Assembly (NCBI GenBank): GCA_043228905.1
Contig: JBHGNT010000016.1
Location: 3,038,001-3,102,000, forward strand
Length of the DNA stretch: 64,000 nucleotides
Source: Azolla caroliniana
Taxonomy: Eukaryota; Plantae; Polypodiophyta
Direction of reading: 5' to 3'
The notes below the pieces were generated by a model. It was not told the origin of the DNA. It saw only the letters and a list, made by a program, of their open reading frames with translations, and ran no database searches. Both the position numbers and the translations under genes were made by a program. Below, in pieces: positions 14,868 to 49,650 of the stretch; the stretch's first letter is position 1; every line of letters begins with the position of its first letter.

Positions 14868-14924
14868 TGGCTTAATGGTAAGCCAATTGACTCTTAACTC
14901 GGAGGTGCAAGGTTTGAATCCTTA
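14868..14924 (+). promoter_or_regulatory. tRNA-like Pol III type-2 promoter (A box + B box) in the LTR of element A; second copy at 25318-25374
   Basis: TGGCTTAATGGTAAG-N19-GAGGTGCAAGGTTTGAATCCTTA, with a D-arm GCTT/AAGC, a CTCTTAA loop and a T-arm. Confidence 0.65.
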
Positions 14925-17900
14925 CTTGCCCTCTTTGTATATGTATACATGTATATATATTTATATATTTATTTATCTAGTCACCGGACACCGGTTCGTC
15001 GGATGCTGTCGGTTACCGGTGCCTCGCCGGATGCAGTCGCTGGATTGCCGTCGGATGCCGGTGTCTCATTGGTGTCGGATGCCACCGGATCACCGGCTCC
15101 ATCGTCGGTCCGGTTTTGGTTGGCCAAAACCCTTTACGAGTAGTTAGCCCACCTCCACTCTTAGTTCAAGTTACCTTGAACTCTCTATGCTCCACACATA
15201 AACACAAAGATAATATCTTTTGCTCTACCTTATATATGATGAGAGCCGTATTTGTCGTGCTTATGTGGGATATCCCACAATTTTATCTTTTCCTTTCACA
15301 AACTTTATACCCTCATATCTTGACATTTAGTTGTCCGTTTCTCGTGTAATAAAGTGCATTCGAAACCTCCATCATTTTGTACTTAGATATTAAATTTATT
15401 TAAAATGTTATCTTCACAATTATTGTATTATGTGATTCATACTCGATTTTGTACGTTTTATGGGATTTTCACACTATTGCCGAAAATCTTCATGACATCC
15501 ACCCCCACCAAACCGCACGTCCTCCGGTACGTGCCAAGAAGAGAGAAAGTGAGATTTCGGCTATGGTGATCAATTAGATTCCTCTATGTCTTCATTTACA
15601 TCCGCCCTATTATGTTCATCGTCGAGGTGATCGAGGTCAGGATCCTTGTCTTGTCTTTTCTTGAAAATCTTTAGTCTTTTTCCCGCAATGGGTACGGCCA
15701 ACCTTGATCCGTCTAGTTCCACAAGGTGGTATGTGGCATTATTGTTGGCACTTGTCACCACATACGGCCCGAACCATCTTCTTGCGAACTTCCTTGTTGC
15801 ATTGTGTTGATTGTCAAGGGTGCTATCGTAAACCAAAACCCAATCCCCTTCTTCAATCTTCTTGGGACGAAGTCGATGCGTGTTGTCGAACCGAACTTTG
15901 TTCTTTACTCGGGTTGCCTCCATCATCTTTCGCGTTTTTTCTAAATCTTCAGGTCTTCTTTCAAGTTGCCTTATCCGCGCCGCTAATAACTCTTCTCGGC
16001 TCATCTCGTTCTCCCACGATATCGCTACCCATGAGGCGATCGTCCTTTCGATGGGCATAATCGGCTTTTGTCCATACATAAGCTCCGTCGGCATATACCC
16101 TGTCACTGAGCTATGTGTCATTCTATCGGCCCACAAGGCATAGGGTAATAATTGTGGCCAATTCCCGACTCGACCGTTGCATGCCCTTACGATGGCTTTA
16201 ACGATAGGTTCATGCCCTCGCTCAATCTTCCCATTCGCTTACGGATTGTAGGCAGTCGTGAGGGAGAGCTTCACGCCTAGTCTTTCAAAGAGCTCTGTCG
16301 CTTCATGCGCATCCAACTCCCCTCGGTCGGCCACTATCTTCCCTACACATCCATATCGGCAAACAACCTCTTCAAGCAGAAATTTGCAAACGGTTGAAGT
16401 CGTCTTATTTGTCAAGGCTCGTCCTTCCACTTGATTTGTCAAGTCTTCCCTTGCCAGCGCTAAGTACTTCATTTGTCCCACTCCCATTGGCATCGAGACC
16501 AGATCCACCATCCATTTGAAGTGTATGGTGAGTGGGTATGTCGGCTGTAACTCATCACGATGACGTATATTTGAATATATTTGGCAAGTTTTGCATGTGG
16601 ACACGAAATGGAGTACATCTTTGTACATGCTTGGCCACCAGTACTTCTCCTTCAACTTTTCGAACGTCGTCCATGTTCCTCTATGACCTGCCCAAGCACT
16701 CTCGTGGAATTCGGTCATCAACATCTCTTGCTCTTCTTCCTTTACCACCACTCAATGTGGTATTCTTGTCCTTCTTTTTGGATGTCGCCAAAGGAATCCT
16801 CCCTTCAAGAAGTATCGGTAAGCTTTCTTTCGGATTTGTAGGGCCTCCTCCTTTGTCAACGAAGCATCTGTCGTCAATGTTCTTAGGAATCTACCGATGA
16901 GTAATCACTCTCCTTCGTACTCGTTCTCGTTGAAGGCGTGGAGGGTTTGCGTGTCCTGGTCTTCCGCCGACAATCGAGCCATCTTGAAGAAGTCGAGGGC
17001 GACATCTTCATCTTCCGAAACCATGTTACTTCCATTTGAAAATCTTGCCCTCGACAGCATGTCAGCCATGGCGTTCTTCTTCCCTGCAATGTGATGGATC
17101 TCTGGGTTTAAAGACTTGATGTAGGCGATCCACCTTAGCATAGCAAGATCTAGGGTCACACATCCCGAGACCATTCCGAGAATTGGGAGACAATCTGTCT
17201 CTATTATCACTTCTGACCCGATCAGGTAATCTTTGTCCGTCTTCACTTCCGACACAATACCCCAAAGTTCCCACTTGACTTGGGCATATCTTTGTTGCCG
17301 TTCGCTGAGAATCTTTGCTCCGAACCGGACAACATATCGCACATTATCTTCACCTTCTTGATTGATGACCCACCCGATTCCGGTTGGGCTCGTATCTACG
17401 GTCACGTTGTCGTGCCTTTCGGCTCCGGATCGTTTGCGTGAGTCGGGTGGGAACCGCCGAGGTTTTGGACTAGGAGAAAGAAGAATATGAGATGAGGCTA
17501 GTAATGAATAGATTATTAGAAAGAGAGATAGAAATCTCGTGAATCCCACGAGTGTATTGTATTCGATTAATCAATATTTAGATAAGAATATGTATTTAGA
17601 TTGAAAGAAAGATATAAGAAACTTGTGAATCCCACAAGTATAGATTATATTATTTTCGTGAATCCCACGATTATATTAATCGGTTGGTGTTTTCGGAAAT
17701 ATATCCAATTTCCAAATATTTCACACACTATTACATTGTGCTCCCCATCCTTATGTAGTGATGAGTAAGTCTTAGTAATCCATGCTTTTTCTCTAACTAT
17801 AGACCCCATGCTTTTCCTATAGATAGACTATATGCTTTATCTAAAGTGATCATGCTTTTTTCTAACTTGTGCGTTTTTTATCATGTACGCTAGATGTGTA

Positions 17901-18000
17901 TGTGTAGCTTTTTCTTTTGTTATGCGTTTTTCTAATGTTTATCCTAGCGTGAATTTACCTTTCTATGTGGGACATCTATGCTTTAACACTAATGAAATGC

Positions 18001-18056
18001 TAGTGTAATGGTAAGACATTACATTATTAACAAGGAGGTGCAAGGTTCGAATCTTG
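18001..18056 (+). promoter_or_regulatory. tRNA-like A/B box cassette in the LTR of element B; second copy at 20803-20858
   Basis: TAGTGTAATGGTAAG-N19-GAGGTGCAAGGTTCGAATCTTG; consensus B box GGTTCGAATC. Confidence 0.7.
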
Positions 18057-18155
18057 CCCTATGCATGTTCCATTTATTTTGCTATTTTCTTCTATTTCTT
18101 CATTTTTTATTGAATCTAATACTATATACGTTTTTCACGTAGTGTACAAAATACA

Positions 18156-20171
18156 CTACGACACTCGCCCCCTCCAAACCCGCACATCCTCCGGTATGTG
18201 CCGAAGTTGTTGGTGTTTGTTAGTCTCCTCCGTCCGGTCTCTACCCGATTGGTTTCGTTGCCGGCTCGTAGTACCCTCGACTTCTCTTGTTATGTTGACT
18301 TTGTCTCTCCATTTGGAGCACATCCATTCTTTCCACCCGAACCATTGTCGACATCCGATCCACCATAGTCTTCGTTCGCTTTTTGCATGGCCCGCTTGGT
18401 CCTTGTCATCCGCGGTAGTATCTTTTCTTGCCCTCTTTCTTTTCTTCATCAATCTCGACTTCTTTTCGGATTTTCGGTTTAGTCGGATTAGCTTACTTCC
18501 GATTCGGTCTCGTTGGATCGTCTTTCGTTTAGTTCGGCTTCCTTTCCGATTTGTATTCGGTCGATCCGGACTCGGTTGATCGGTTTTTACCGATTCAGTG
18601 CTCTTTCGGGTCGGTTTCTTTTCTTTTCTTTTCGTTCGGATTTGCTTTCTTTTCTTCGTTTTCACCTGCCTTGTCCGGTTCGACTTTCGGCACTTCTTTC
18701 CGTTGTTCGCCACGTAGGTCCTCCGATATGTGCTCGTTGTTCGGTCCTCGTGTGGTTGTAATGCATGCTTCTTTTCTCGCCGTAGCGCGTGCTTCTTTAT
18801 TTGCCATAACACGTGTTTCTTTATTCGCCGTAGAGCGTGCTCTGTATTACGCGCTTCTCCCGTCGTAGACCCGACCTCCGCATTGTCGCACTTTCTTTTA
18901 GATTGGAATTTCGGATGGATCATTTTCCATCCGAACTGACTTCCGACTTTACCTTCCTCGCCGCCATCTCCCGTCTCTCCGGTCTCACGTTGGTTCTCGG
19001 ACACAACCGCCGAAGTCTCTAGATATTGTTGGCATGAATCCTCGGTATTACCTTCTTTCGTAGTTTCACCCTTAGCATTCTTCTCGGCTATCTCTTCATC
19101 GTATTCGTCGGCTTCGACATTCGTTTTCTCTCCGCCACCTTCCGTCTCTTCGGTCTCACGTTGCCTTTTGATCGCAACCGCCGGAGTCTCTGGAATCAGT
19201 GGTGGGGAAGTCTCGATATGGCAATCCGCCATTGATTCGTCCATAGCCACCTCCGATTCGATTTCGTCTTTTGTGGCTACCTCCTTAATCAAGTCCTCCT
19301 TGCTCTCTTTCACTGCATCAATTATGCTTACCCCTTTTTCACCCAATGTTTCGGACACTTGTATTCTGAAATCTTCTTCTACACTTGGGTTATCGGCCTT
19401 ATCCTTCATCGTTGTTCTTTCGCAAGACAAGAGGGTAGCTTGTTTTACACCCTCTTCTGTCGCACCATCATGTTGTATTTCGGCCTTCATATCGGCTCCA
19501 TCGTTTGTCTTCAATCGACCATCCTTCATCGGCCATGTCGTTGACAAGATTCTCATCTTCCTCTCATCATGTCTCCGGCATACCCTTTGGACTTCGGCCC
19601 AATTTTCGGTAAGACCATTCGTACCGTCATCGTCTTCGAGTTCGATCCCGATGTCCATCCTTTCTTTTCGATCGATCGATTTTACGAACATTAGGACTTT
19701 ATCCTCCCCCACCAATCGTTGTTCCCGCTCCGAGAGTTGAGCAAGACGATGCTCGAACTCTAGGAATGCTTGTGTTGCACTTCGGTGGGTCTTCTCCGAT
19801 GCCACCCATTCGTCGAATTTTCGCCGATCTTGTCCCTTTGATCTCTTGTAATCATATGCCTCTCGTAAAGCTTCTTCGAATGACCCCCATGTCGAGTTTT
19901 GTTGCCGTATCTTGTGGATTCTCTCTTGTAGCTCATCCGTGGCCACCCGATTGAAGGATGTCACTTGCAATCCTTCCGGTATCCCACATCGTATCATCTC
20001 CGCCTTGTAGTCACGTAGATAGCGTGACACATCGTTTCCGTTGAATTGTCCGTTTCGTTGTACGAGCCGCTTTACTGCCCCCGTGATCTCCGACATCACT
20101 CGTTGTTCTTGTAGCATCCGCTCGAACATCATCATCATCGTTTTGCTCATTGCCTCTTGTTGATTCTCCAT
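18156..20171 (-). CDS. Gag-derived 671 aa protein with acidic and basic low-complexity tail and a C-terminal Trp/Arg motif
   Basis: Open ORF filling the whole internal region from ATG 20171. N-terminus aligns with element A Gag (FNGNDVSRYLRDY vs FDGRNVTKFLDAY). No zinc knuckle or protease. Confidence 0.8.
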   Translation of the reverse strand: MENQQEAMSKTMMMMFERMLQEQRVMSEITGAVKRLVQRNGQFNGNDVSRYLRDYKAEMIRCGIPEGLQVTSFNRVATDELQERIHKIRQQNSTWGSFEEALREAYDYKRSKGQDRRKFDEWVASEKTHRSATQAFLEFEHRLAQLSEREQRLVGEDKVLMFVKSIDRKERMDIGIELEDDDGTNGLTENWAEVQRVCRRHDERKMRILSTTWPMKDGRLKTNDGADMKAEIQHDGATEEGVKQATLLSCERTTMKDKADNPSVEEDFRIQVSETLGEKGVSIIDAVKESKEDLIKEVATKDEIESEVAMDESMADCHIETSPPLIPETPAVAIKRQRETEETEGGGEKTNVEADEYDEEIAEKNAKGETTKEGNTEDSCQQYLETSAVVSENQRETGETGDGGEEGKVGSQFGWKMIHPKFQSKRKCDNAEVGSTTGEARNTEHALRRIKKHVLWQIKKHALRREKKHALQPHEDRTTSTYRRTYVANNGKKCRKSNRTRQVKTKKRKQIRTKRKEKKPTRKSTESVKTDQPSPDRPNTNRKGSRTKRKTIQRDRIGSKLIRLNRKSEKKSRLMKKRKRARKDTTADDKDQAGHAKSERRLWWIGCRQWFGWKEWMCSKWRDKVNITREVEGTTSRQRNQSGRDRTEETNKHQQLRHIPEDVRVWRGRVS

Positions 20172-22586
20172 CTCCTTGCCACCCGCCTTCACGTCGGGTT
20201 CACCAACTGTGTCGTGCCTTTCGGCTCCGGATCGTTTGCGTGAGTCGGGTGGGAACCGCCGAGGTTTTGGACTAGGAGAAAGAAGAATATGAGATGAGGC
20301 TAGTAATGAATAGATTATTAGAAAGAGAGATAGAAATCTCGTGAATCCCACGAGTGTATTGTATTCGATTAATCAATATTTAGATAAGAATATTTATTTA
20401 GATTGAAAGAAAGATATAAGAAACTTGTGAATCCCACAAGTATAGATTATATTATTTTCGTGAATCCCACGATTATATTAATCGGTTGGTGTTTTCGGAA
20501 ATATATCCAATTTCCAAATATTTCACACACTATTACATTGTGCTCCCCATCCTTATGTAGTGATGAGTAAGTCTTAGTAATCCATGCTTTTTCTCTAACT
20601 ATAGACCCCATGCTTTTCCTATAGATAGACTATATGCTTTATCTAAAGTGATCATGCTTTTTTCTAACTTGTGCGTTTTTTATCATGTACGCTAGATGTG
20701 TATGTGTAGCTTTTTCTTTTGTTATGCGTTTTTCTAATGTTTATCCTAGCGTGAATTTACCTTTCTATGTGGGACATCTATGCTTTAACACTAATGAAAT
20801 GCTAGTGTAATGGTAAGACATTACATTATTAACAAGGAGGTGCAAGGTTCGAATCTTGCCCTATGCATGTTCCATTTATTTTGCTATTTTCTTCTATTTC
20901 TTCATTTTTTATTGAATCTAATACTATATACGTTTTTCACGTAGTGTACAAAATACACTACGACAACGTAAATTGGTTTCCCTTTGGTATAGTTGGCCTT
21001 ACTTACTGCCGGAGCTTCAAGAAGCAGTTTCTTTAATCTTCGCATCGCATTTGTGTGCTCATCTCGCCATTCGAACTTCATTCTTTTCTTTAGTAGTCCA
21101 TATAACGGTTCGGCGACATGAGCGTAGTGAGGAATCCATATATGATAAAACACGCACGCTCCAAGGAACCTTCGAACCTCCGTTTGGTTTTCGCATTCTT
21201 CTTTCATGTCTTGGATTGCATTCACTTTGGATGGCGAGGGATTCCGGCCGTATGCTCCACACAAGTGACCTACCACCAAGATCTCCGGTTGCCCGAATGC
21301 GGATTTTTCTCCCGAAAATGTCAAATTCGCATCTTCGAGCCTTTGAAGCACCTTCTCGCAATCTTTCATATGATCCGCAACGAACTTTCTACAACCTTCC
21401 TTATCTTTTGATTCATCTTTCTCCTCATCCGAACATCCTTTTATCGGAATATCATCCAAGAATGGCATCGTGATGTCTGGGATGCAATCCTTCAAGACTT
21501 TATTCATGGCATTCACCATATGAGCCACCGAGTTCGTTGCGCCTTGGGGTAAGGTACACATCCGCACAAGTTCGATCGGAGTCCTCATGGTTGTAATGTC
21601 CCGACTGTCGATCGCCAATTGGAATTGGTCATATCCGGAGTACCGCAAACGCTTCGGCAAATTCGTCCATGCTCGGACCGATTCCGGCATTTCGAATTGT
21701 CACCTTGTTGACGGGTTGAAGATCTTGGATGAATTGCAATGATCCATTCTTCTTCTGCACCATGAACCACCTATTGGAATAAGGAGCATTCGACGGTTCT
21801 AGAATTCCGATACTCACCTTCTCCTTTAAGAGCTCGATCAACTTCGGAAGGTGTGCTCTCGGAACCGATATCGGTTTCAAATTCCAAGGCACATGAGGCA
21901 CCGTGAAGATCACCATCGGCTCTATAACCTTTGGGTCGGTGCATCCGATTTCTCATGGGAAGAATGCGAAAGCCTTCCCATGTCTCTCAAGCATATCACG
22001 AAACATTCGCTCCTCTTCAGGGAGAAGGAAATCCTCCTTTCCAACTCGTAGCTTCCCCTTCGTCTCTTTGGTGAAGACATGTCTATCTTCTTCGGATCTC
22101 TTAAGCTTGGATCGTTAGCGACTTCCTTCATCTTTTGCCAGCTATCTTCTGGTAGCGGAACCGCAACTGGCTTGATCTTCTTATCCACCGTTTTATATTT
22201 CATGTTGATGTCAGCTTCCTTCATCGAGATGCCACGACGGTATTCATCGATGATAGCGTACATGTTGACGGAGTTAACCGAAATCACGCATTGGTTGTGA
22301 AGATAGCTCAAGTCCACGACGTCCTCGATTTCACCGATGGTGTCGTTAAATGAGGTTTCTTCCATAATATGAGTCACGAACTCTCCTTCTTCTATTATGT
22401 TTTCTTCTTTCAGCATCTTCTCGAATTCTTGTATCCGGTGCTTGTGCTTCTTGTCGGGTAGTACTAGTTTACATGCGCCACTAGGTGTGACACATGTTGC
22501 TTCTCCTCGCAATCCACACACTCTTCTTTCTTGTGGGGTCTTGTGATTGCTCAGACTATTTGTACCCCATGCTTCAATAGTCCGCT

Positions 22587-24785
22587 CTAAAAATCCAAGG
22601 ATTCACCTCCGAGACTATCTCGATTCCTTTCATGATTGGCTCGCACCGTTAGGAATTGGACCAATCTTTGGTTGTCAAGACTCTTTATTCGTGTGAAGGC
22701 TGATCCATTATCGAACACTTTGGTCTCCATCCGAGATGATGTGATATAAGGTTGCCCTAGGATGACAGGATGCAACGTCGATTCTTGTACGAAGAAGTGT
22801 TGATCCATCTCCACATCCCCGATTGTGACTTTGATATTGGGACAAGCTCCGTACAAGTCCTCCGTAGACTTTGTTGCCGCGCGAATATTCCATCCGTGGT
22901 TTGTATTGATTGGCCATCTTCCTTTTTTGTAGAAGTTGGTTGACATGAGGTTGATCTCCGAGCCGTGGTCGATCAAGGCTACCACGGTCTCTTTCTTCTC
23001 CCCGATCTTCACCGGCGTCTCCGTTGTCGCTCGTGCCCAATGAGGTCGAGTATAGTGGATGTCCACCATATCTTCATCGACTTCGTCTCTTGCCATCGTT
23101 ATGGCATTCGTTTTTTCTTTTTGCTGCTTCTCTTCTTCCTCATCCGATTGTTGTCTCTTTCTCTTTACAAGGTCCACAATCGTGTCATGGAACTCCTTCT
23201 TCGTAATGCCAAGCAATTCCCTCAAGGACAAAGTTACGTGGCTATCAAGAACTCGTTCTTCGAGAATCTTCTTTAGGTCCGTCATCTGCTCTATGTCCGA
23301 CCTTAGCTTATAGGTAGGTATAGTCCTTGTCCTCCAAGCGGGGTCTTCGACACCAACCTTCACGGGCCGAACCGTTTCTTCAACTCGTATGCTCGGCTCC
23401 CCTTTTCGGCTTGATTCTCGTTCCTCCGTTTGTAAAGGTCGACTCGTCTCCGCATCGTCCTTCTTTTTCGCGTTCCTTGTTTCATATCTTTTTTATGGGC
23501 CTTGCTCTTCTATTCTCTTTCTCTTTTCTTCGACGAACACCTCGTGGTTGTCGCACATCACCTCTGCGAGTATGGTGTTGTCATCCACCGGATCCGACCA
23601 CCCGGTTATGCTTTGCACGCTTCGGTCCGCAAGCTCTACCTCGTTCGATGTGACTTTTCCCTTCTTCTCATATTCGAGAACGGAAGTCCAAAACTTTGCT
23701 CCCGCTCTAGCAGCTTCTGTCTTGTCTTTCCCGACTCTTATTCCGGCCGACGCAGCATAGTGCATCGCATCCACATGAGTCGCATCGGCATCCTCCATAG
23801 ATTTCTTCATTCCTCCTCTTCCGAAATTCACCCGTAGGGGTCTTCTAGTCTCGCTTGAGCAGATCATGTTGTCCTCTATGTATACGATATTTTGTCGAAT
23901 CGCCTCTCGAAGGCTCGCACAATCCCTTCTCATGTGGTCCATGCTATCGCACCACACGCATCTAAAGGGTTCTTTTCCTTTAGGGCCCCAACGATTCATG
24001 TTGGCTAGCGTGACCTTCTCGAACTTCTTCGCTAGCTCTTCAATGATGTCGTCATCAATCTTCTTTTCTTCCATGTTACTTTGACTTGGCGGCTCAGCTA
24101 CTTTCGGCGGTCTTGCTTTCTCCGTGGTAGTCGATCCCGTCAAGTCGATGTCATCAACCCATTGGCGACGCTTGTCGAGCCTATTGCATGCCCACTTCAC
24201 CGCGATCCAGTCCGCTACGAGCCCATTTGCTTGGGTATCATCTTCGAGAAGAGTCCCCAACTCCCGTCTATCCTTTGTGTCCACGGCCTTCAAGAAGTAC
24301 AAAGTCTTATCCTCTTCAAGCAACACTTGGTCCGTATTGGGGAGACGACTAAACATCTGGTCAAATTCGTCGTACACCCTCGAGATGCTCATCTTCTTAT
24401 TCTTCTTCTCTATCCACTTCATCAGGGCATGTCGAGTCATCCTCGTTGAGTCTTCAGTCACAAACTCCGCTAGTATCGTTTTCTCGAACTCGAACCATGT
24501 TGTCTTACCTTCTTGAAGCTCGATGACGCGTATTTGGATGTTGTTGGCGACAACTCTCTTGAAGCTTACGATTTGACGTGCCTCGGACACGTCCCTCTGA
24601 TTCATCTCCCTTCTATATGCATCAAGGAACTTCGTAACATTCCTTCCATCGAATTGGCCCTCGAGCTCTACGACACGATCGACAGCCTTCTCCACGCTCG
24701 CGTCGTTGTCCCGAGATCTCATCATTTGCTCGACGATTAACATCATCCTTTCGAGCTCTCCCGCTTGGTTGCTTGAGGACGCCAT
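22587..24785 (-). pseudogene. element A gag-protease (one frameshift near 23490)
   Basis: Zinc knuckle CVWCDSMDHMRRDC; aspartic protease motif ALIDHGSEINLM; ends ESLDF*. Confidence 0.9.
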
Positions 24786-25918
24786 CTCCAAGTATTAATC
24801 TTGACTTGATCCTTCCTACCGCCTCTTTCACGTCGGGTTCACCACTTAATTATGTCATGAAGATCCGTCACTACGCGCGGATCGTGAGGCAGAACCGCCG
24901 GGGTTCTGAACCGGAAGGATTCAAAGTCGGTACAAGCTTTGGCGCAAGCTTTGGCGAGAAAGTACTTAGGATAGATTGGGAAAGAGACAATTTGAGATTA
25001 AACGATTGAGAGAGATTGATTGAACTTTTATCTTTGGATTTAAGAAACAAGTTACACGATCAATTTGATAACGAATTTCTTCCTCTTAATTTCATAACAA
25101 AAAAAAACGCGTTTTTTTTCCTCCCCCTTCTTTTATAGATGCTCTCATGCATATGATGCATGTAAGGGTACAAGACATGCATAAAATGCATGCTTGCCAT
25201 TTGGCGCTTATGTATTACATGTGGTGCATGATAACCATGTCACTCATTTTAGCTCTCATGTATGAGAATTTACACATAAAAGTACAATGATAGAAATATA
25301 AATTCAACTAAATGGCATGGCTTAATGGTAAGCCAATTGACTCTTAACTTGGAGGTGCAAGGTTTGAATCTTTACTTGCCCTCCTTGTATATGTATATAT
25401 GTATATATATTTATATATTTATTTATCTAGTCACCGGACGCCGGTTCGTCGGATGCCGTCGCCGGTTGCCGCCAGATGTCGTCGGTTACTGGTGCCTCGC
25501 CGTCGCCGGATCACCGGCTCCATCGTCGGTCCGGTTTTGGTTGGCCAAAACCCTTTACGAGTAGCTAGCCCACCTCCACTCTTAGTTCAAGTTACCTTGA
25601 ACTCTCTATGCTCCACACATAAACACAAAGATAATATCTTTTGCTCTACCTTATATATGATGAGAGCCGTATTTGTCGTGCCTATGTGGGATATCTCACA
25701 ATTTTCTCTTTTCCTTTCACAAACTTTATACCCTCATATCTTGGCATTTAGTTGTCTGTTTCTCGTGTAATAAAGTGCATTCGAAACCTCCATCATTTTG
25801 TACTTAGATATTAAATTTATTTAAAATGTTATCTTCACAATTATTGTATTATGTGATTCATACTCGATTTTGTACGTTTTATGGGATTTTCACACTATTG
25901 CCGAAAATCTTCACGACA

Positions 25919-27165: not shown

Positions 27166-30100
27166 TGTAATATCTAAGTCGTCGACTTTATTGGACTGAC
27201 CTAATGTGTGTCATAGGGTACCCCGCACATGATTGGTCAGGTAGATGTCATTACATGGCCTAGGTCCTATAAATTGGGGAGACTCTCCTTGGTTAAGGGG
27301 GACCCCATGAGTGGTTCAGACGAAGCTCTCCATAGATCATTAACGTTAATGGGTGGATTATAGGGATGATTATACAGTTGATTAAAAGGATGATAATATA
27401 ATTATATGGATAAGATCATCATCATTTATCAATCGATACGAAGGAGAGAGATAAGAGAAGAAATCAATGTTGAGAGGGATCATGAGTATGAGATGGATGG
27501 GAGGAATAAGGCTATGATGAGTGAATAGATCATCATTATTGGGATGACCATCATCACTATTTTGTTAGTACAATGATTCTCAAGAGGAATATTGGGATGA
27601 TGAGTGAAGAGATCATCATTATTTGGATGATCATCATCATCTTTTGGTTAGTACAGACTATAGTGATTCTCAAGGAAGTTGCCTACTATCCCCACTGACT
27701 TCCAAAAAGGGGATGTTTATCTCTAAAATCTAAACTAGAAAATTTTCATAACTAAAAAAGGAGAATTTCCTAGTTTGGAAGCATTCAAGAAAGTAACCTT
27801 AGAGAGTTGGTCACCGACTAGTACTCACCGACTTCTTAAAAGGGAAGGTATTGCTCCTAATGTCTAATTTAGAAATTCCTATAGATAAAAAAGGGATAAA
27901 TGCCTAAATTGGACATATCTAGGGGGAATGTTTTTTAAATTCCTATAGATAAAAAAGGGATAAATGCCTAAATTGGATATATCTAGGGGGAATGTTTTTT
28001 ACTCGCCGACTTAAGAAAATTGGGTATATAAGTATTCCCACTCTCTCATTATCTATCACTCTTCAGTTACTCATCTAAATCCTAAAGTCTTTTATAATAC
28101 ACTTTAGTACTTTAGACTTTAGTATACTTATTTCTTTCCTCTCTCAATTCTCCTTATTTCTTTCCTCCTCTCGTAATTCCGCACATCACACATCTCCCAA
28201 TCATCATAGTTTTTCGACACATCCCACATCTCCCACCCGTCAAGGTCATCCAATTTCTCCTATACGAGATGAGGACAACCGACCAATATCTCCGGTTCGT
28301 GACAAGGATATTAACGATGATATCAAATTTGTCACGAGGGATGATTTCCGCAAAATGCAAGATGATATTGTCAAGTCAATGACAATGGTCACAACTGCGT
28401 TTTCCTCCAAACTTGAAGGGCTTCTTGATGCCAATAGGCATCAATTTGAAATGAAAACCTTCAACAACAAATTTTGGAGTTAAAGGCACATGCTTCCACA
28501 TCAAGCAATACGAAGAAAGCTTCATTTACTCCTCAATAGTTCTCAGGAAGGGATAAGCAATGCAACCACGAGTTTGTGAGCAGTTGGATAAACCGATGGA
28601 ATGCTCACTTTCGCCTCGAGAATATTGAGAATGTCTCTATAAAGATCGATATGGCGGTTCATGAGATGATCGGTGCTGCAAACTCATGGTGGGAGCGGTT
28701 GGATAGAAAACCAGGAACGTGGGAGGCATTTGAAAAGACTCTCAGGATGGAATTTGTCCGTTCCAAGACAACTTCTTAAGTGATACAAGATATGTGTCAC
28801 TTGTCAGATAAGGGCAGGACTATTGACCAATTCAATCAGTATTTCCTCAAGTTAATAACAAAGCATGGACTTTTGTCGGCATCTAATGAGGAAATATAGA
28901 TAGGATTATATATTAATAGTTTTCATAATAAAGATTTTCATTATAAGATCCATACTCATCAACCCAAGACCTTGGGAGAAGCGATGGAACGTGCCCGCAT
29001 TCTGTTTGACACAAAACCTCGTTACCAACTAAAAGAGTCAGAAGGAGAAAGCGACAAACGTAGATACCAACCTTCTCTGATAGGTCAAGGCGACAATGCG
29101 AAAAGACGGGTAATAATCTGCAACTTTTGTAAGAAGCTTGGGCATAAAGCCAACGAGTGTAGGTGGAGAAAGAAGAGTGGTAACTCCAACAATCTGCAAA
29201 GAAAGCCATCAACTTCCAATAATCCAAGTATGTTCTTGAATTATTTGAATTCCGTTAGTTCTATTGCATTACAAAAAAATATTCTCGGACCACACGATTT
29301 ACTTAAAACTTATGGGACTATCCACAATCAAAGTGTAACTATACTATTTGACTATGGTAGCACTCATAATTTTCTTGACTCTAATATGGTTCAGATATTA
29401 CGAATAAAAACAACCAAAAGTGACCCCGACTACAAAGTCCTTATTGCGGGAGGCCATGTCCAAAGGCATTCATTAATTGCACATGGTGTACCCCTAATAA
29501 TAAATAACTACATTGAAAAGTTGACTTTTCATGTAATGCATTTATGAACGGTAGATGTAGTTCTTCGTTACATATGGTTTTATAATAGACATAGTCTTTA
29601 TATCGATTTGCCAAATCATACTATTTCTTTTGAAGGAAATAACAACCAACAAGTTTTTATTCATGGGATTGTGATAAACAATTTAATGTCTGTTAATCAT
29701 CTTTATGCTTATGATCAAAACGTCGATGCACAATTTTATGCATGTATATTAGAGCCCAATGATCCTCCGTATCAATTTGTAGATAAGAGTTCATTGGACA
29801 ATTTTGAGAAAGATGCTCTACGTGACATCTTGTTGAATTTTAAGGAGATATTCCCGGATAAGTTACCTCAAGGACTACCTCCTTCTCGGCCTATAGATCA
29901 TAAGATAAACTTGGTTCCATGCGCTAAACCTGTGAGCATAACCCCATATCGGTTGAGTTGAACCGAAGAGGATGAAATTGCCCGACAAATCAAGGAATAC
30001 TTGAGGATGGGACACATCCGGTACAGTAAATCGCCATGGGGAGCTCCTGTCATCTTAGCCAAGAAGAAGGATGGAACATGGCGAATGCATGTGAATTACA

Positions 30101-32644: not shown

Positions 32645-32660
32645 ACGTTTTCTTAACATT

Positions 32661-36242: not shown

Positions 36243-36752
36243 TGTCACGGACACACCAACCCTAGACTACGACAAAGCACAGATGACGAGGCTATGATTG
36301 ATAAGGTTACGAACATGGAACTAAACGTGATGAGGCTAGAAACTCTGGAAGTTGGGAGCGATGAGATGAGGAACTTAAGACGCTATGAACAATACAAGAG
36401 CATAAAGACAAAGATATAAATCAAGGAGAGAAGATGGGGCTTAGATTGATGTGTCAATGACTGGCCTTGAATTCCTTGAAAGGGACTAAGGAGGTTACAA
36501 GTATTTATAGTGCGAGTTGAAGTATATGTGTTAGAATATTCTTGAGAATATTTGGTAGAATATTCTAGAACTCTCTAGAACCTTCTAGTTCTAGAACTTT
36601 TTAAAAACTCCTACAACTTGAAATAGATAGTAATAATATACTAAGATAAATATGACTATGTATTTGGATGTGTTGGTTAGAACATAACACTTGACTATAT
36701 ACAAGAGGTGATGAGTTCGAATCTTGACATGACTATTGTCAGGTCCATGACA
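36243..36752 (-). mobile_element. solo LTR related to the 3026-5250 element
   Basis: TGTCA...TGACA termini with 5-bp TSD TCCAG (36238-36242 and 36753-36757). Begins with the reverse complement of the 5250 LTR end (TGTCACGGACACACCAA). tRNA-like box at 36665-36726. Confidence 0.88.
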
Positions 36753-39166: not shown

Positions 39167-42100
39167 TGTCGCGTTGTTACGCGCGTGCGTGGAGAAGGGC
39201 GGAACCACGGGGGTCTTGGACTAAGGAGAAGGGGAGAAGGAATAGGACTTCGGAATGGAGCTTAGCACAAGAAGAGAAAGAACGAACAAGAGGAAGATGG
39301 AGGCCAAATGCTCAACAAGATATATTAGAACCGAACACCGATTACAAAATGGCGGCCGCGTAGGCCGCACCAAACGGCTATGATAAACCCGAAACCCTAA
39401 TCCGACGAAGAAGAAAAGAAACCCTAACTAAGGAACCCTAAACGAAATGGTATACCTCACTCACACTCCAAAATAAGGCAACCCCCACAATGGTGCTCTT
39501 CCTCTCCCTTTATAGCACAAGGAGGGAAGACCGTTACATAAAGGTGCTACAAAATATCCCCTTTCAATCAATGGGGATATTTCCCTTGATTTTAGGGGAG
39601 GTGGGAAGGATGGGTCTTAACTCCCACCTCTACACGAACTACTATGTACCTATCTCTCTCTCTCACGTGGATGTGCGCGCAAAAGCACATCACCTCTACA
39701 CTTTACAAATCCTAAGGTGCATTTCTAGCACCATACTTATCACTATCGATAAATAGAAATACAACATGGTGATGTGCAACGTTGCACATCGCGGGTTTGC
39801 TTGCTTCGCTCGGTTTTCCGCCTATGGACGAAAATCTTCACGACATCCGCCCCCACCTAACCGCACATCCACCGGTATGTGCCAAAAGGGGAACAAAACG
39901 CGAGATTTTCGGCCAAGGCGGCCAACCGAGCCCTTGACAACCTCGTGGGCTTGCCCGGCTTAGTCTTCCACTTCGAGCAAGTCCACCCCGTCCACACGAA
40001 CCACCGTCGCCTTCCGGCCCACCATCTCCGCCGAATGGTCTCGAACCGTTGGCTCCATCCGATCCGCCACACTTGACGACGTTCGCCGAGTCGTGGCCTC
40101 CACCCGATCCGCCACGTCCACCGTGTTTCCTCGAACCACCGTCTACATCCGGACCGCCGTTTCCGATGCCCGCGCTTTCTTCCCCGATCGGTCCTCCCGA
40201 ACGCCGTTGCCGACCCTTTGTCCGCCTCGCATATCCTCCGGATCCGCCTTTTTCGCGCCGCGCACCACGTCGTGCCGACTCTTCTCGCTCCGCGCTTGCC
40301 TTCCGTAGGCTTTCCCCGTACGTCGGTGTCGTCCTCCGAATGCGTGCTCGTGCTTCGGTCCTTCGATGACCCCATCACGCATTTTTCGCCTTCCCTTTGC
40401 TTGCCGTGCTCTCTCGCCGTAGAGCATACCATCGTTCCCGCGCTCGTTGCTTGGCCCTCATGCGGCCGCATTGCACGTTTCGCATTCCGCTCCTCTTCGC
40501 GTACCCTTTCGGAAAGGTACCTTTCTTCCCCGATCTCCGTTTCGCTCGGAGGAACACCCTCTTGGCCCTCTTGGCCTGCTCGACCGCACACATCCTTCGT
40601 GATGTCGTGTTCGTTCCTTTGGGCGCATACATCTTCGTTCACCGCGACCTCCCGTATGCCTCTCTCGGTGCCTTCATCCGTTGTGGCCTTCGTCCCCTCG
40701 CCGCCACCGTCCGCCACTCTTGGTCTCACGTCGGCACTCGCGCCGATCGCCGGAGTCTCTATAGCCGGTGTGGAGGATCCCTCTCGGGTCTTATCTTCGT
40801 GGCCGCCGGTCTTAGCCTCTCCGTAGGCCACCTCTTCCCACCAATCTTCCCTAGCATCGTGCCGGGTCTCGTCGTCGCCGCCTTCCTCCTCGTATTCGCC
40901 TCTCGAAGGCGTGATCCGACCGTCATCTTCGGTCGCTCGATGTGGCTCCTTCGTAGGCATGCTTGTGTCTTGGCCCTCCATCGGCCGTATTGCATGCATC
41001 TCGTCTCGCTCTTCCGCCGTAGACCCGACCTCCGTGTCGGTCTTCTCCTCCTTTGTCGCCGTAGCCCGTTCCGACACGGGCTCGCCGTCTTGGACCCACC
41101 CGTCCACCATCTCGTACCGGATATCCGTTCCGGTAACCTCGTACGCTCCGGCCTCCGACTCCTCGCCGCCACCCGCCGTCTCTCCGGTCTTATGTTGATC
41201 CGCAACCGCCGTAGTCTCTAGAGTGGGTATGGAGGGCCTCGTTTGTTTCCGTTTTTCCCCCGAACCATGGTCGTCGTGCCCGGTTAGCCTCCATCTCGCG
41301 CTTACCGGCTCCCATCGTAAACGTAACCGTAACCGTAACCGTAACCGGCCAATCGGTCTTGCCGGCTTCCTTCGGTTTGGGCCCGGTTCGCCGGCCCTTA
41401 CTCTCTTCTTCTTCCGTGCCGTATTCCGGTAGGGTCGGTTCCCGACTCTCTCCTCGTTTCCGCTCCGGTCCTCTCCGTCGGACCCACCGTATACGCCCAT
41501 TCCGGGCCCCGCATACTCGTCTTCGTATGCGCTCTCTCCGGGCCTCACCTCCTCACGGTCACCGCCCATCTCTCCGGTCTCACGTTGGCATTCGAGCACA
41601 ACCGCCGAAGTCTCCGGCCCCGGTGTCAAGGGGTCTTGCCTCCGTCCGCTCCAATCTTCCTTCTCGTTTCCATTGCACGCCTTGCCGCCGTCACCTCCCG
41701 TCGCACTAAGCCTCATGCCGGCCCTCGGGCCGGCCATTGGAGCCTCTAGGATTGGTGTGGGTAAGGACCCGGCACCGCCGCTTGTTGTCTCCGTAGCCGC
41801 TTTCGTTCGGACGTCGTCCGCGGCTCCCCCATCTCCGATTCCGTAAGCCTCTAGTATGCTTGCCACCACCTCTTCTTCGCCGTTCTCCGCGTCATTTTGT
41901 TTGCCCGCCTTGCCGCCACCACCGCCCGTCGTTCTAGGTCTCGTGCCGGCACTCGGGCCGACCGCCGAAGCCTCTAGGGCCGGTGTGTGGAAGGTCGCGG
42001 CACCACCGCTCGCCTCCTCTCCGCTCGATGTTTTGGGCCGCCGTGCCCCGAATCTTCCGCCCACTTTCGAAGTGGCGCTCTCCGCTTTGTAGTCACCGGC

Positions 42101-44840
42101 CTCATCCTTGGCCGTCCATTCGCCGCAAGACGAGAGGGTCGCTCGCTCCGCACCCTCTCCCATGTCGTCGTCGTTTCGGTTGCCCGCCTTGCCGCCGCCA
42201 CCGTCCGTCACTCTAGGCCTCTCGCCGGCTCTCGGGCCGGGTGCCGGAGTCTCTAGGACCGGTGTGTGGAAGGTCGCGACACCACCACTCCTCTCGTCCG
42301 TAGCCACCTCCATTCGGACATCGTCGTCCGTGGCTACCCCGTCTTCGGTTTCGCAAGCATCGAGTATGCTTGCCGCCGCCTCTTCTTCGCCGGTCTCGTC
42401 CTCATCTCGGTTGTCCGCCTTGCCGCCGCCACCGTCCGTAGCTCTAGGTCTCGTGCCGGCACTCGGGCCGACCGCCGAAGCCTCTAGGGCCGGTGTGTGG
42501 AAGGTCGCGACACCATCGCTCGTTTCGTCTTCCTCCTCCATTTCGCAAGCCTCGAGTATGCTCGCGAAATCCTCGTAGAACGTTTCGGGCAACCGCGTCC
42601 CGAAACTTCCGCCCACTCTCGAAGTGGCGTCCATCGCTCCGTAGATATCGGCCTCGTCCATGGCCGTTCTTTTTCCCCGAGATGAGACGGTCGCTTGCTC
42701 CGCACCTTCTCTCGTGTCGACGCCGTGGTCGCCCGCCTTGCCACCGCCACCGCCTTTCACCATAGGTCTTACGCGGGCACTCGGGCCGGCCGCCGTGATC
42801 TCTAGGAATGACGCGTGTAAGGTCGCGGGACCGCCGCTCGTCGATGTATAGTCCGTGGCCACCTCCGCTCGGACGTCGTTGTCCGTGGCTACCCCGCCTC
42901 CGTATATGCAAGCATCGGTTATGCTTGCCGCCGCCTCTTCCGCGGTCTTCTTACCGTTGTCTCGGTTGCCCACCTTGCCGCCGCCACCGTTCTTTTCCCT
43001 CGGTCTCACGCGGGCGCTCGGGCCGGCCGCCGGGGTCTCTTGAACCGGCGCGTGGAAGGTTGCGGTACCGCCGCTTGTCTCCTCCGTACTCGATGATTCG
43101 GGCCACCATGTCCCGAATCCGCCATGTCCGCTCGAATCGGCGATTGCCGCCTCACCGTCCCCGACCTCGTCCTCGGTCGTTCTTTCCCCCCATGTCGAGA
43201 GGGCGGCTCGCTCCGCACCCTCTCCCGTGGTACCGATGTACCATTCTCTTTCGGCCTCCGCATGGGCCCCGTCCTCCATGTGTGAGGAAGCTCCTTCCTC
43301 CGCGTCCTCCGATCCGCTCGGGCCCGACCCCGCAATAAGCCATTCTTCGGCTTCGATTTTCGCCATTACGAGCCCGCACGCCTCCCGTATTAGCGCTTGT
43401 AGGTCGAGCCCCTCCAAACCGGTTCACGATGAGCTCTCGTCCGGCGGCATGGCGTAGTCGGTCGTCGCTCTCTCTTCTCCCCCGCTCGCGGGCCGTGTTG
43501 TGGCCGACCGCCTCGCCTCATGTTGCCGACACACCCATTCCACTTCGGGCCACTCCTCGGTGAGACCATGCGCCCCATAATCGTCTTGAAGCTCGAACAT
43601 GATGTCCATCCTCTCCTCATGATGGACCGTCTCCAAAAATAGGAGGACTTTGTCCGCCCCCACCGTTCTTCGTTCCCACTCCGAGAGTTGAGAGAAACGA
43701 CGCTCGAACTCTCGGAATGCCTCTATTGCGCTCCGATGGCGCCTCGCCGACGCCATCCACCGATCGAACTCTCGCCGACCTCTTACCTCCGATTCCGCGC
43801 ACCCGTATGCCTCCATTAGAGCCCCTTCAAAGGACTCCCACGATTCGTGAGCTTCTTGGAGCTCCTTGACCTCCTCGTACTTTGATGCGGCCGCCGCTCG
43901 ACGAAAGAACTCTAGCCTCGTCGCTTCGTCCACGCCCATCCCCGTCATTTCCGCATCGTAGGCTCTCAAAAATTTTGGGACCTCCTTCCCATCGAACCGG
44001 CCGACTAGACGGACCACCCTTTCGACCGCTTGTTGAGCCGCCTCTCGCCTCGCCCTCTTCCGTCCGGCGTCCATCACGATCTTTGTCATCATCTCCTCGA
44101 AGTCGAAGCCTTCTTCCATCTCTTTCTCCCTTGCCGCCCTTCACGTCGGGTTCACCAAAGATGTCGCGTTGTTACGCGCGTGCGTGGAGAAGGGCGGAAC
44201 CACGGGGGTCTTGGACTAAGGAGAAGGGGAGAAGGAATAGGACTTCGGAATGGAGCTTAGCACAAGAAGAGAAAGAACGAACAAGAGGAAGATGGAGGCC
44301 AAATGCTCAACAAGATATATTAGAACCGAACACCGATTACAAAATGGCGGCCGCGTAGGCCGCACCAAACGGCTATGATAAACCCGAAACCCTAATCCGA
44401 CGAAGAAGAAAAGAAACCCTAACTAAGGAACCCTAAACGAAATGGTATACCTCACTCACACTCCAAAATAAGGCAACCCCCACAATGGTGCTCTTCCTCT
44501 CCCTTTATAGCACAAGGAGGGAAGACCGTTACATAAAGGTGCTACAAAATATCCCCTTTCAATCAATGGGGATATTTCCCTTGATTTTAGGGGAGGTGGG
44601 AAGGATGGGTCTTAACTCCCACCTCTACACGAACTACTATGTACCTATCTCTCTCTCTCACGTGGATGTGCGCGCAAAAGCACATCACCTCTACACTTTA
44701 CAAATCCTAAGGTGCATTTCTAGCACCATACTTATCACTATCGATAAATAGAAATACAACATGGTGATGTGCAACGTTGCACATCGCGGGTTTGCTTGCT
44801 TCGCTCGGTTTTCCGCCTATGGACGAAAATCTTCACGACA
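39167..44840 (-). mobile_element. pol-less LTR element C (Trp-primed clade), very young
   Basis: 679 bp LTRs at 39167-39845 and 44162-44840, apparently identical. TSD ACGT on both sides; removal restores Copia DVRH|VPEV. Trp PBS at 44140-44157. Confidence 0.95.
39857..44119 (-). CDS. Gag-derived frame of about 1420 codons (one in-frame TGA at 43426-43424) with internal peptide repeats and a C-terminal Trp/Arg motif
   Basis: The 231 aa and 1186 aa ORFs are in the same frame. Gag-like FDGKEVPKFLRAY. At least 6 ATFHTPxLExxAxGP...GGGGK repeats. Near the end: RRRWWAGRRRWFVWTGWTCSKWK. Confidence 0.7.
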
Positions 44841-46985: not shown

Positions 46986-47644
46986 TGTCGTGAGGAAAAC
47001 CGTCCCCGTGCGCAAAGTGTGTGTGAACCGGCCTTGCACGTGGGCACGCCCCTGTTGTATAGTAGATAGGTGGGCACAAAGTCAAACCCTAGGTAGCAAT
47101 ATTCCATAGGGAGAATCGAGGAGTGTCTCTGTCCGAAAGGACAGAGAATTAATGTGATGTATACGGGTGAAAACGGTCTCCCTCCTTGAGCTATAAAAGA
47201 GAGGGAGACGGGGGAGAGAGAGGTATCGCGCGCGAGAGGGGACGAAGTGCTGTCGGACTGGGACCGAGCACTTCTCTGTCATTCTCCGTAGCTTTCTTGT
47301 GCGCAGGTTCTTGAGAGGTTGATTCTGCTCCGTGGAACGCCCGTGTGCTTCCGGCAAAGTCTTCATCTCGCACCCCTGCGCGCGTGGGTGGTCAGGCGTC
47401 GATATCCATCTAGCAGGCCTGATCGGTTGTAACCGTTCGCGTCGTCTGCATACTTATTTTATATACATACACTGGTGTTCTTATACTCTATTCCCCGTTC
47501 AACTCGTGTCTCTTGTGTCATTGGACCGCGTTCCCGTGCGCTTCTTTGTCTATACGTGTGTGAGCGTGTCTCTCTCTCTGTCCCTTCTCTCACCTATTCC
47601 TCGGTCCAAGACCTCAGTGGTCCCGCCTTGTTCTCCACGCACGC
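46986..47644 (+). mobile_element. LTR of element D (same clade), interrupted near its U5 end
   Basis: Starts TGTCGTGAGG after ACGT. TATA (CTATAAAAG) at about 47191. U5 motif GTCCAAGACC...CCGCC...CTCCACGCACGC. Confidence 0.8.
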
Positions 47645-48220
47645 TGTCGAGATATTACGCAAGTGCGTGTGGAATCGAGGCGGGACCGCGGGGGTCTCGA
47701 ACCAAAGAGCAAGCGAGGGAGGAGAAAGAGAGAGAGAACCGGCTACGGAGGACCGGGGATACACAGGGACACGGCCCTTCAGCACGGAGAACGCGAACAG
47801 ACACCGACACAGACAGATGCGAATGACTTAATATGTATATTAAGAAAATGGCTAACACTACTACAACCCTCGATGGGGCACAGGTTGGTTACAACCGAAC
47901 AGGCCGGCGAACAGATGCCGACGCCTGTTCACTTCGACGCTCAAAGGGGCTGCCGGAAGCACTCGGGCGTTCCTCGAAACAGCGCGAGCCTCCTCGGAAC
48001 CCTGCACAGAAAAGCTATGGAGCTCAGGAAGGAAGGAAACAGAGAGAGAGAAGCGTCCAGAAACGGTCCGACAGCACTTCGTCCTCTCCCCGCGAGATCC
48101 CTGCAACAGCTCTTTCCCGCTCCTTATATAGGCCGACGAGCAGGCCGTCGTGTCAGCTTTATTCCCTGTCCCTTTTGGACAGGGATCCGCTCCGTTTTTC
48201 ACGCATCCGCGTAGTTACGC
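47645..48220 (-). mobile_element. LTR of element E, inserted in the LTR of D and interrupted by F
   Basis: Starts TGTCGAGATATTACGC...GGCGGGACCGCGGGGGTCTCGAACC after ACGC. Inverted similarity to D (GACGAAGTGCTGTCGGAC). Confidence 0.75.
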
Positions 48221-49650
48221 TATCGCGAAGATTCGCGCGTGCGTGTGCTACTCGAGCGACCACCGGGGTCTTGGACTGGGGAGGACGTTCGCAGAATTAT
48301 CGATGCTAGATGACGATCAATGTAAGATTAGATGAAATTGGTTTACTTGAGAAGGAGAAAAATTGTACACTTGAGAAGTAGAAAAACATGAAGAAGATAA
48401 AGACAAATATAATTATATTGATGATAGTGGTGTTGGTGATATCACATATTGAGCCCCCCTTACACAAGCCCAACTAGAGGCTTTTATAGGTCTTTCCATG
48501 CTCGTGACATGCACAAAACCATGGGCTAAAACCATGGTTTTGTGCACACGGTTTTGCTTATGTCATGCACAAACCATGGGTTTAAAACCATGGTTTTGTG
48601 CACATGGTTTTCTATGGTTGTTTCGTCTATAATTTGTATATGAAAAGGAAATACATATAATCTACACTATATGATAGTTGTCCTAGTGGTAAGGCAATTA
48701 TCTTGTATGTTAGAGGTGCAAGGTTCAATCCTTGCTTGCACCCCTCTGTATGAACTCAAGTGCCAGTAGGCTAGGTTTATTTGCTAAGTGCATGTGCAAT
48801 GTTGCACATCCTTGGTTTATTCATCTCACTCGGTTTCACACCGTAGCCGAAAATCGTCACGACATCCACCCCCACCAAACCCGCACATCCTCCGGTATGT
48901 GCCGAGAAAGGTGAAGAGGTAAGATCTTTGGCAACGGCGATCAACCGAGTTCCTCTGCACGCTCGTCGTCCTCGTCTTCCACTTCGAGTATGCGCAATCT
49001 TTCCAACCGAACCACCGTAGCCACCCGATCCACCATATCCGGCGCTCACACCTTCTTCCCCGATCGGTTGTAGTAGATCTACCGAACGATGTCGTCGATA
49101 CGACCGCTCTTCCTTCGTCCACCGCGCGTGTCCTTCGATTGGACTCCTGGCCACTCCTCACGCTCACCGTCTTCAACTGGGTATTGTAGATCGTTCGTGT
49201 CGATCTCCGATTAGGCCGGGTTTGCCCTTGTCCGGATCGGTCTCCACCGATCGCTTCTTGGCTTGGTTGGCCTTCGTCTGCATTCACATTTCCCCGAGTC
49301 GGGCTCGACCGATTGATTCTGGCTGGGTCGGCACCCTTTTGGATCGGAATCGTCCGATCGATTTTCGCCGAATCAGGTTTCGGCCGGGTCGGCCCCGGTC
49401 GATCGGCTCCCATGTGGATCTTCCTTCGTTCGGGTCGGAATCCCGGCCGGATCGTCTTCCGGTTCAACCGGTTCTCGACTCTTCCTTCCTTCCCGCATGC
49501 AACCTCTCCATCGAACTCAACCGCAGCTTCATCCTTGGCCTCCACGTCGGCCATATCCTTCCCTCCGTGTATGCTCGCCTCGGGCCATATTGTCTCCTCT
49601 TCGCCACCTCCTTTATCTTCGGTCTTATGTCGACACACGGTCTCGACTGC
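48221..49650 (-). mobile_element. element F: 3' LTR (48221-48864) and 3' internal region running into the gap
   Basis: LTR ends TCACGACA, followed by the PPT complement TCCACCCCC. ORF 49638-48826 contains RRIWWIGWLRWFGWKDCAYSKWK. tRNA-like box at 48679-48734. Preceded by ACGC. Confidence 0.85.

Follow-up and report, generated by a model that had tools for sequence, protein, structure and literature searches.

It has long been asked how a young LTR element can remain transcribable when it is embedded in nested, silenced repeats. The question is raised in a particular form by a window of 64,000 nucleotides from Azolla caroliniana (the whole stretch of DNA analysed here), in which LTRs of several Gypsy families carry a tRNA-like A box and B box in front of a TATA box. 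What is this unit, and what could it do for the LTR? As a candidate element of 53 nt it comes with natural controls, namely sister families in which it is antisense, sense, doubled or lacking.

The cassettes in the window

Element A (14399..25918, minus strand) is a Phygy-like Gypsy element of about 8 kb, not counting element B nested within it, with LTRs at 14399-15497 and 24853-25918, a primer site at 24829-24844, the target duplication TCGT (left end damaged) and RT, RNase H and integrase regions interrupted by stops; its family has a very high copy number. The 3' LTR contains a cassette (14868..14920, plus strand) that covers tRNA positions 8-61, is antisense to the element and lies 180 nt from the TATA box (14680..14688, minus strand), by its sequence the putative Pol II promoter. 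Position 56 of its B box is T. The 5' LTR has its own copy (25318..25370, plus strand).

Element B (17408..20965, minus strand; 3.6 kb) is a gag-only element nested inside the RNase H of element A. Its frame has 738 codons, its LTRs (17408-18163 and 20210-20965) are identical and its target duplication is ACGT. Its 3' LTR cassette (18001..18053, plus strand) has a full B box, a four-T run about 22 nt downstream and, 10 nt upstream, an AACACT motif common to the B clade; the 5' LTR cassette (20803..20855, plus strand) is identical. Of element F only the 3' LTR (48221..48864, minus strand) is seen, the remainder being lost at the N gap 49651-49750; its cassette (48679..48731, plus strand) is one base short in the T loop and lies 190 nt from a TATA box.

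Looser cassettes are found in a decayed LTR at about 1105-1823 (1731..1785, plus strand; antisense to a TATA box near 1523), close to the U3 end of a family C solo LTR at 36243-36752 (36666..36724, plus strand) and at the extreme U3 end of the 3' LTR (4826-5250) of the non-coding, approximately 2.2-kb element C (4829..4889, minus strand). The solo LTR is flanked by a 5-bp target duplication, TCCAG, and family C therefore probably has another mobiliser. The first-pass annotation had described the cassettes of A, B and F, each with a 19-nt spacer, and these agree letter for letter; the looser ones that it had placed at 1731, 36665 and 4889-4829 are also present. Its estimate that a TATA box lies roughly 160-250 bp from the antisense copies compares with 156-243 nt counted by hand, the TATA box of element B having one mismatch. 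Its statement that the cassette is always antisense did not hold, since a ninth cassette (5857..5910, minus strand), in a decayed LTR homologous to the related loci L007 and L008, is in sense with its TATA box (5749-5757, same strand). In this copy the A box has decayed and the B box is largely retained.

The B-box stretch matched five times in the window and never in 100 shuffles, and so did a spaced pattern of invariant letters, which was taken from these same cassettes; the window cassettes are thus not due to chance. A profile model (R2), trained on the window cassettes and on 18 of 80 related loci, gave with filters off nine window matches at E<1e-6, all inside LTRs, the next best having an E value of 0.27.

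The cassette-bearing lineage has a tRNA-Trp primer site and 4-bp NCGN target duplications (ACGT in B and D, TCGT in A). We regard its LTRs as those of Phygy-like Gypsy elements, a placement that comes from target site and homology, not from a tree. In NCGN target preference and compact coding region it resembles Phygy, a non-chromovirus Ty3/gypsy lineage, as far as the available text describes it (Neumann et al., 2019; PMC6317226), and likewise in that no chromodomain or extra RNase H was matched by Pfam. Named homologues are Riccia proteins with at most 71% identity. Element D (39167..44840, minus strand), of the same lineage and with the same primer site and an ACGT duplication, serves as internal negative control: the R2 scan with filters off recognised no cassette in its LTRs, and a supposed remnant was rejected because it came from forced alignment only, with no profile match. 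Nor did the R2 scan of the window find a cassette in element E (46987 onward), a further family of this Gypsy lineage.

Conservation without a cloverleaf

In an alignment of 16 antisense cassettes, 12 of the 85 columns are invariant and six nearly so. These 18 columns (at least 90% conserved) correspond to tRNA positions 8, 14, 16, 18-21, 33, 43-47, 53-55, 58 and 61; gaps are almost nil, and not one of 32 flank columns is conserved. An A box followed by a B box at tRNA-like spacing is the layout of a type 2 Pol III promoter, where we take the box positions to be those given by tRNA numbering. Across 395 columns of seven aligned LTRs, 42 are invariant, 25 of them within the roughly 60 columns of the cassette, eight at the TATA box and nine over the remaining 325 or so; the expectation that the boxes are better conserved than the surrounding U3 was thus borne out. 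The figures are inflated, because the copies were recovered with profiles built on the very features scored. Variants of at least 2% occurred at none of the 18 conserved but at 6 of the 35 other cassette positions, a weak difference (Fisher p ~0.07, by hand), and contig depth along the A LTR could not rank its parts.

The anticodon arm had been described as diverged. This is correct for the anticodon triplets, which vary freely, and incorrect for positions 33 and 37: by hand count, 15 of the 16 copies have T at the former and 15 a purine at the latter. Cloverleaf pairing is no better than in shuffles (47.4 vs 48.3%), covariation is nil and no consensus fold of the cassettes was found. ARAGORN, run on the window and on 60 of the 80 loci, reported no tRNA, and Rfam gave no tRNA match for the window, for the cassette of A by itself or for 12 loci. 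An intact or functional tRNA gene was rejected on these grounds. Conservation in the register of the boxes together with loss of the cloverleaf points to a signal in the DNA (A box, B box and their spacing), not a tRNA, as the target of selection. The idea that the cassette copies the primer tRNA was also rejected, the likeness to the Trp primer site being limited, by eye, to generic tRNA letters.

Distribution among related loci

Of 80 related metagenome loci, which are redundant and come mainly from one set of assemblies, 26 contain cassettes according to the profile; distances and tallies were counted by hand. Some of these loci have open gag and pol frames, and in L002, L007 and L059 the pol frame is 1174-1181 codons long. 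The cassette is located in an LTR in 25 of the 26 strong loci and is antisense in 15 of these 25. Sense copies in U3 (L006-L008, L011, L062, L077 and L079) belong to two integrase clades. The sense family L007 shares 81-86% integrase identity with the antisense families A, L002 and L003 and with the cassette-free L001 and L013; for the sense family L077 and the antisense L058, L064 and L078 the figure is 80-81%. Within two clades orientation thus varies, whereas the distance to the TATA box is maintained: in both orientations the first copy lies about 145-260 nt before it (hand counts), with L056 (about 360 nt) as the exception, and eight copies cluster at 155-165 nt. Carriers retain the TATA box downstream of the cassette.

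An LTR may contain one to three cassettes, two in some families, and copies in R/U5 occur in L066, L067 and L076 and weakly in L002. Two sequence types can be distinguished. The integrases of carrier families are only about 67-74% identical; the boxes are invariant and the flanks beyond alignment. At least ten related LTRs that are readable from PPT to TATA box carry no cassette, among the cassette-free relatives being the closely related L001, and L022, a copy of the A family, has its B box deleted. Because of these at least ten LTRs we conclude that the cassette is dispensable, an optional site of the LTR. Viral contigs searched by integrase and by pattern gave no match.

Function proposed for the cassette

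We put at about even the chance that the cassette, as a unit of A and B box derived from a tRNA, acts as a DNA site, probably for TFIIIC/Pol III, and helps to hold the neighbouring Pol II promoter of the LTR open. It may descend from a tRNA or from the head of a tRNA-SINE, by more than one capture or by exchange of modules between LTRs. TFIIIC would bind the cassette DNA, and the putative effect would be a barrier against silencing or a positioning of nucleosomes. Because the A box is gone from an old copy in the window, selection would act on the lineage of elements. A short Pol III transcript, should there be one, would be a side effect or a tool and would not serve as template for replication. 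If TFIIIC were bound, a family of very high copy number would also scatter TFIIIC sites through the host genome.

A more specific proposal, which we make tentatively, is that autonomous plant Gypsy elements repeatedly captured a tRNA promoter about one nucleosome before the TATA box, where it would serve as an orientation-independent TFIIIC/Pol III anti-silencing barrier. In favour of a DNA site in general is a tDNA barrier of fission yeast, which requires TFIIIC and Pol III and works in either orientation, according to the part of that report available (PMC2040200).

Several observations count against a DNA site. The T at position 56 in A and the B-box deletion in L022 are two, the dispensability of the cassette is a third, and the R/U5 copies make a barrier before the promoter less sensible. 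The exact spacing, T33, purine 37 and a GAGGT stretch are, to our knowledge, not among the requirements of TFIIIC and hint at a constraint at the RNA level.

The cassette might accordingly be a small Pol III gene for a tRNA-like two-hairpin RNA of 90-120 nt, used as decoy, source of small RNA or packaged cofactor, in the manner of the Pol III cassettes of foamy virus LTRs. Besides the retained T33 and purine 37, the B clade speaks for such a gene with a full unit of invariant AACACT upstream, boxes, conserved 3' arm and T-rich tract. By hand count, 9 of the 16 antisense copies have at least four T no more than 40 nt from the B box. Of 20 cassettes, 7 beat shuffled folding at z <= -2, and most of these form two hairpins. 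For an extended T-arm hairpin, 74.6% of cells pair, vs 70.5% in shuffles (14/500), and L030 shows one clear double change; this T-arm structure, however, was derived from the very sequences scored. The other 13 cassettes miss z <= -2 and the hairpin registers differ, a nearby terminator is absent in A, F, L002 and L030, and the anticodon triplets are unconstrained. A slipped D hairpin, rejected as a shared structure, pairs no better than shuffles (56.5 vs 55.1%). We consider a gene of this kind doubtful. That antisense RNA is the purpose of a fixed, outward-facing cassette, as had been suggested at first beside an insulator and a nucleosome-free region, is unsupported, because both orientations are found.

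Alternatively, heads of tRNA-SINEs or captured tRNAs may have entered AT-rich U3 repeatedly and been amplified with the LTRs as passengers; the seeming conservation of the boxes would then follow from their presence in every head of this kind. Several acquisitions would agree with the two orientations, the tandem and R/U5 copies and the two sequence types. The passenger reading also has in its favour the absence from many relatives, the probably different mobiliser of family C with its 5-bp duplication, and weak cassettes beyond recognisable Phygy LTRs in L021 (12016-12082, E 2.6e-5) and L016 (3206-3257, E 0.36). At five cassettes inspected closely, neither own target duplications nor tails were seen, and these do not resemble a free SINE. 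Mere passengers would also hardly be confined to LTRs, as are 9 of 9 strong window matches and 25 of 26 strong loci, nor bunch at 155-165 nt from the TATA box, nor keep invariant boxes across families with such distant integrases and unalignable flanks. We think this origin without function unlikely.

A use of the cassette as Pol III promoter for the element or for short derivatives, the role proposed for Helenus in the available text of Kojima (2024; PMC10886601), would suit the seven sense loci and is very improbable, with most LTR loci antisense, elements of 3.5-8 kb that contain T runs, six T immediately behind the B box of L077 and a TATA box still downstream in carriers.

Comparison with known systems

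The cassette has precedents of several kinds, each described here from the part of the paper available. Like the tDNA/B-box barriers of fission yeast it has A and B boxes and no fixed orientation; those barriers are genes of the host, located at the borders of centromeres and tested by mutation, whereas the present unit is a degenerate copy in a mobile element, known from sequence (PMC2040200). Like the miRNA cassettes in foamy virus LTRs it is an A/B-box Pol III unit in an autonomous retroelement transcribed by Pol II. The foamy virus hairpins are proven by experiment, and the present unit, read from DNA alone, differs by tRNA spacing and loop letters and has no common precursor fold (PMC3993851).

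In the open literature we found no description of coding Gypsy LTRs with such a unit, Repbase and subscription papers being outside the scope. The available text on Phygy does not mention an LTR cassette (PMC6317226), and a term search of the available parts of PMC7466625 (on P. patens transposable elements), PMC12885004 and PMC13570524 gave nothing on one; the supplementary tables of Kojima (Table S1) and Neumann may bear on novelty and on the primer type of the lineage.

The first-pass annotation had named Cassandra as precedent. Cassandra and Ajax do have Pol III promoter boxes within their LTRs, yet these are 5S-derived (type 1), belong to miniature elements and are the element's own promoter (PMC10886601, available part). 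The closest known system is Helenus (TRIMp3), which had been overlooked. In the available text (Kojima, 2024; PMC10886601) both its LTRs contain tRNA-derived sequence with conservation focused on boxes A and B, no functional tRNA and several origins, as in the present case. Helenus is non-coding and 311-1263 bp long and its boxes are proposed to transcribe the element, whereas the present carriers are gag-only or gag-pol elements of 3.5-8 kb with the unit in either orientation upstream of a kept TATA box. The same text remarks that "not a few LTRs" resemble tRNA, in a study limited to TRIMs of less than 1000 bp. It argues that Pol II is obligatory for autonomous partners and that LTR sequence of this kind is unlikely to be shared by them (PMC10886601). 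The Azolla elements extend tRNA-derived LTR boxes from miniature to coding elements, in which by this published argument the boxes would not be needed.

Conservation of the cassette

The five strict cassettes in A (14868, 25318), B (18001, 20803) and F (48679) are present in the window exactly as the first-pass annotation had written them, and its three looser ones (1731, 36665 and 4889-4829) were also found. The B-box stretch has five window matches with at most three mismatches, versus none in 100 shuffles. One of the five (5857-5876, minus strand) belongs to a copy absent from that annotation (5857-5910); it has a decayed A box and lies in sense orientation within an LTR alignable to those of the metagenome loci L007 and L008, which contradicts the claim that the cassette is always antisense. 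The annotation had also proposed a check with tRNA finders; ARAGORN and Rfam called no tRNA gene in the window.

In a nearly gap-free alignment of 16 antisense cassettes in tRNA register, picked like the LTR set below for carrying the cassette, which favours conservation, 12 columns show no variation and another six are at least 90% conserved, as against 0 of 32 flank columns; the A and B boxes and their spacing are thus better kept than the flanking U3, as claimed. The conserved columns are, in tRNA numbering, 8, 14, 16, 18-21, 33, 43-47, 53-55, 58 and 61. The anticodon triplet is variable, cloverleaf pairing is not above the shuffled level (47.4% versus 48.3%) and RNAalifold found no common fold. 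By hand count, seven LTRs aligned from TATA box through cassette have 42 invariant columns (25 in the cassette, 8 at the TATA box, 9 elsewhere). The way both sets were picked does not, however, account for the decay of flanks and stems beside persisting boxes and spacing.

In DNA contigs of the A family from two runs, variants at 2% or more occur at 6 of 35 free versus 0 of 18 conserved positions, a weak difference (p ~0.07), and the upstream flank is likewise little variable. In several of these contigs the exact match starts at the A box, with different A-rich flanks before it. At position 14894 most copies have C, giving the triplet CCT (CTT in the window). Together with the likeness of the L059, L063 and L043 T arms to the tRNA 3' half in L075, this makes an arginine tRNA plausible as the source. 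The half in L075 (1157-1210) is well kept, ends in CCA and directly precedes an apparent LTR of another lineage.

Host elements

The window is land-plant DNA, as judged from BAHD transferase, ribosomal L27A and PPR genes. Elements A, B, D, E and F are one Gypsy lineage because they share a polypurine tract, 4-bp target duplications centred on CG and a primer site, presumably that of tRNA-Trp, which was found in A, B and D. Element A contains reverse transcriptase, RNase H and integrase, with stops; among named proteins, its integrase has homologues in liverwort (Riccia) and, in one case, in a fern, and metagenome proteins reach 92% identity. According to Neumann et al. (PMC6317226), the NCGN target preference is peculiar to Phygy.

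B (17408-20965; nested in A) and D (39167-44840) are recent, non-autonomous members with gag only, identical LTRs and internal repeats; B has relatives that carry integrase, L058 and L064, and these share its cassette. Family C is non-coding and has a solo LTR with a 5-bp duplication, and was therefore probably mobilised by another partner; the ~2.2-kb, non-coding element C at 3033-5250 harbors an internal array, its units 46-54 nt long, and has no recognised primer site. Two related family E LTRs stand head to head inside a Copia element (46987-48220; inverted repeats I5 and I6), neither with a cassette. No cassette match lies near the LTRs of a decayed Gypsy element of a different type (28600-32640, chromodomain-like end by eye) or of the Copia element from 37316 onward. 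A host segment is duplicated (32661-36100 and 50260-53700, ~98% identity).

Distribution and orientation among relatives

The relatives are the best 80 of 244 loci on metagenome contigs, fetched by integrase alignment. A profile built from six window cassettes only matched 12 of the 80 (E <= 1e-3); a second, whose 28 training cassettes were partly taken from 18 of the 80 loci, matched 26 (E <= 1e-4), nine of them outside the training set and three of these near-copies of training families, counts not to be taken as frequencies because many loci are short or redundant. Read by hand (L006 and L073 by likeness to L008 and L072), placement is antisense in U3 in 15 loci, sense in U3 in seven, sense in R/U5 in three and outside a recognisable LTR of the lineage in one; none of the 26 is in coding DNA. 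L059 and L063 have two or three cassettes in tandem, L002 and L015 a weak second copy, in sense, behind the TATA box, and that of L051 is cut off at the contig end. Open pol frames are found in the carriers L002, L007 and L059, contigs that may merge many copies.

With filters off, a search across 23 of the remaining loci turned up no cassette in their own LTRs; at least ten of the 23 are readable from polypurine tract to TATA box, L001 being one of them, whose integrase is 82% identical to that of A. As judged from sequence, the cassette is real and lineage-wide yet optional; its function we infer. A free SINE-like source is possible: L021 (12016-12082) and L016 (3206-3257) have weak cassette-like stretches that lie in no recognisable LTR of the lineage. 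In a nested A-family LTR (L022 1958-2016) a deletion took out the B box.

By pairwise integrase identity, not by tree, the sense family L007 groups with A, L001-L003 and L013 (81-86%) and the sense family L077 with L058, L064 and L078 (80-81%). Sense copies L008 and L077 have one extra base behind GG and a variable loop other than that of most antisense copies. This suggests that capture happened more than once or that modules were exchanged.

From A-box start to TATA box, hand counts gave 155-165 nt in eight copies, 179-260 nt in most other antisense copies and ~145-216 nt in sense copies. The interval from cassette to TATA box, about one nucleosome long, is in many families rich in short ATGCAT/CATG palindromes (window 14690-14830; L002 7040-7180; L015 990-1130). 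In the A clade, the outer part of U3 has tandem repeats, GC-rich or of CCGAAAT type, whose length varies greatly (window 14985-15115; L003 900-1250; L035 1200-2050); they are present also in L001 (6100-6250) despite its lack of a cassette.

Possible function

TFIIIC is the known reader of A and B boxes. We would place about half of our confidence in the cassette being a DNA element bound by protein and read as boxes plus spacing, with TFIIIC as candidate reader; any binding, transcription or benefit is an inference. It is preferred over an element promoter or a fixed antisense RNA because boxes and spacing are kept, direction is indifferent, the distance to a retained Pol II TATA box is narrow, and the unit is sometimes doubled and sometimes lost. 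In fission yeast, a tDNA barrier acts independently of its orientation (PMC2040200).

That an RNA product is what matters is rather unlikely. Folding z is <= -2 in 7 of 20 cassettes, as two hairpins in differing registers, and in the B clade a T tract and, upstream, an AACACT motif have been retained; the extended T hairpin has a small pairing excess, the slipped D hairpin none. Four-T runs follow within 40 nt in 9 of 16 cassettes, but A and F are without one, and no single RNA structure is shared by every cassette. From the foldable cassettes, the B-clade signals and the T runs, transcription is plausible in some clades. Somewhat less probable still is a mere passenger. An alternative promoter for the element, whose own TATA box is retained, is very improbable.

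Comparison with known systems

Foamy viruses likewise have Pol III cassettes within a Pol II element's LTR, but theirs make miRNAs (PMC3993851). The papers searched, in their main texts, describe no such unit in coding Gypsy LTRs. Helenus (PMC10886601) has the same kind of tRNA-derived sequence in its LTRs but is miniature and non-coding, unlike the carriers with open pol frames. tRNA-derived LTR boxes are thus already known from Helenus; their occurrence in coding Gypsy LTRs is, on the literature searched, new.
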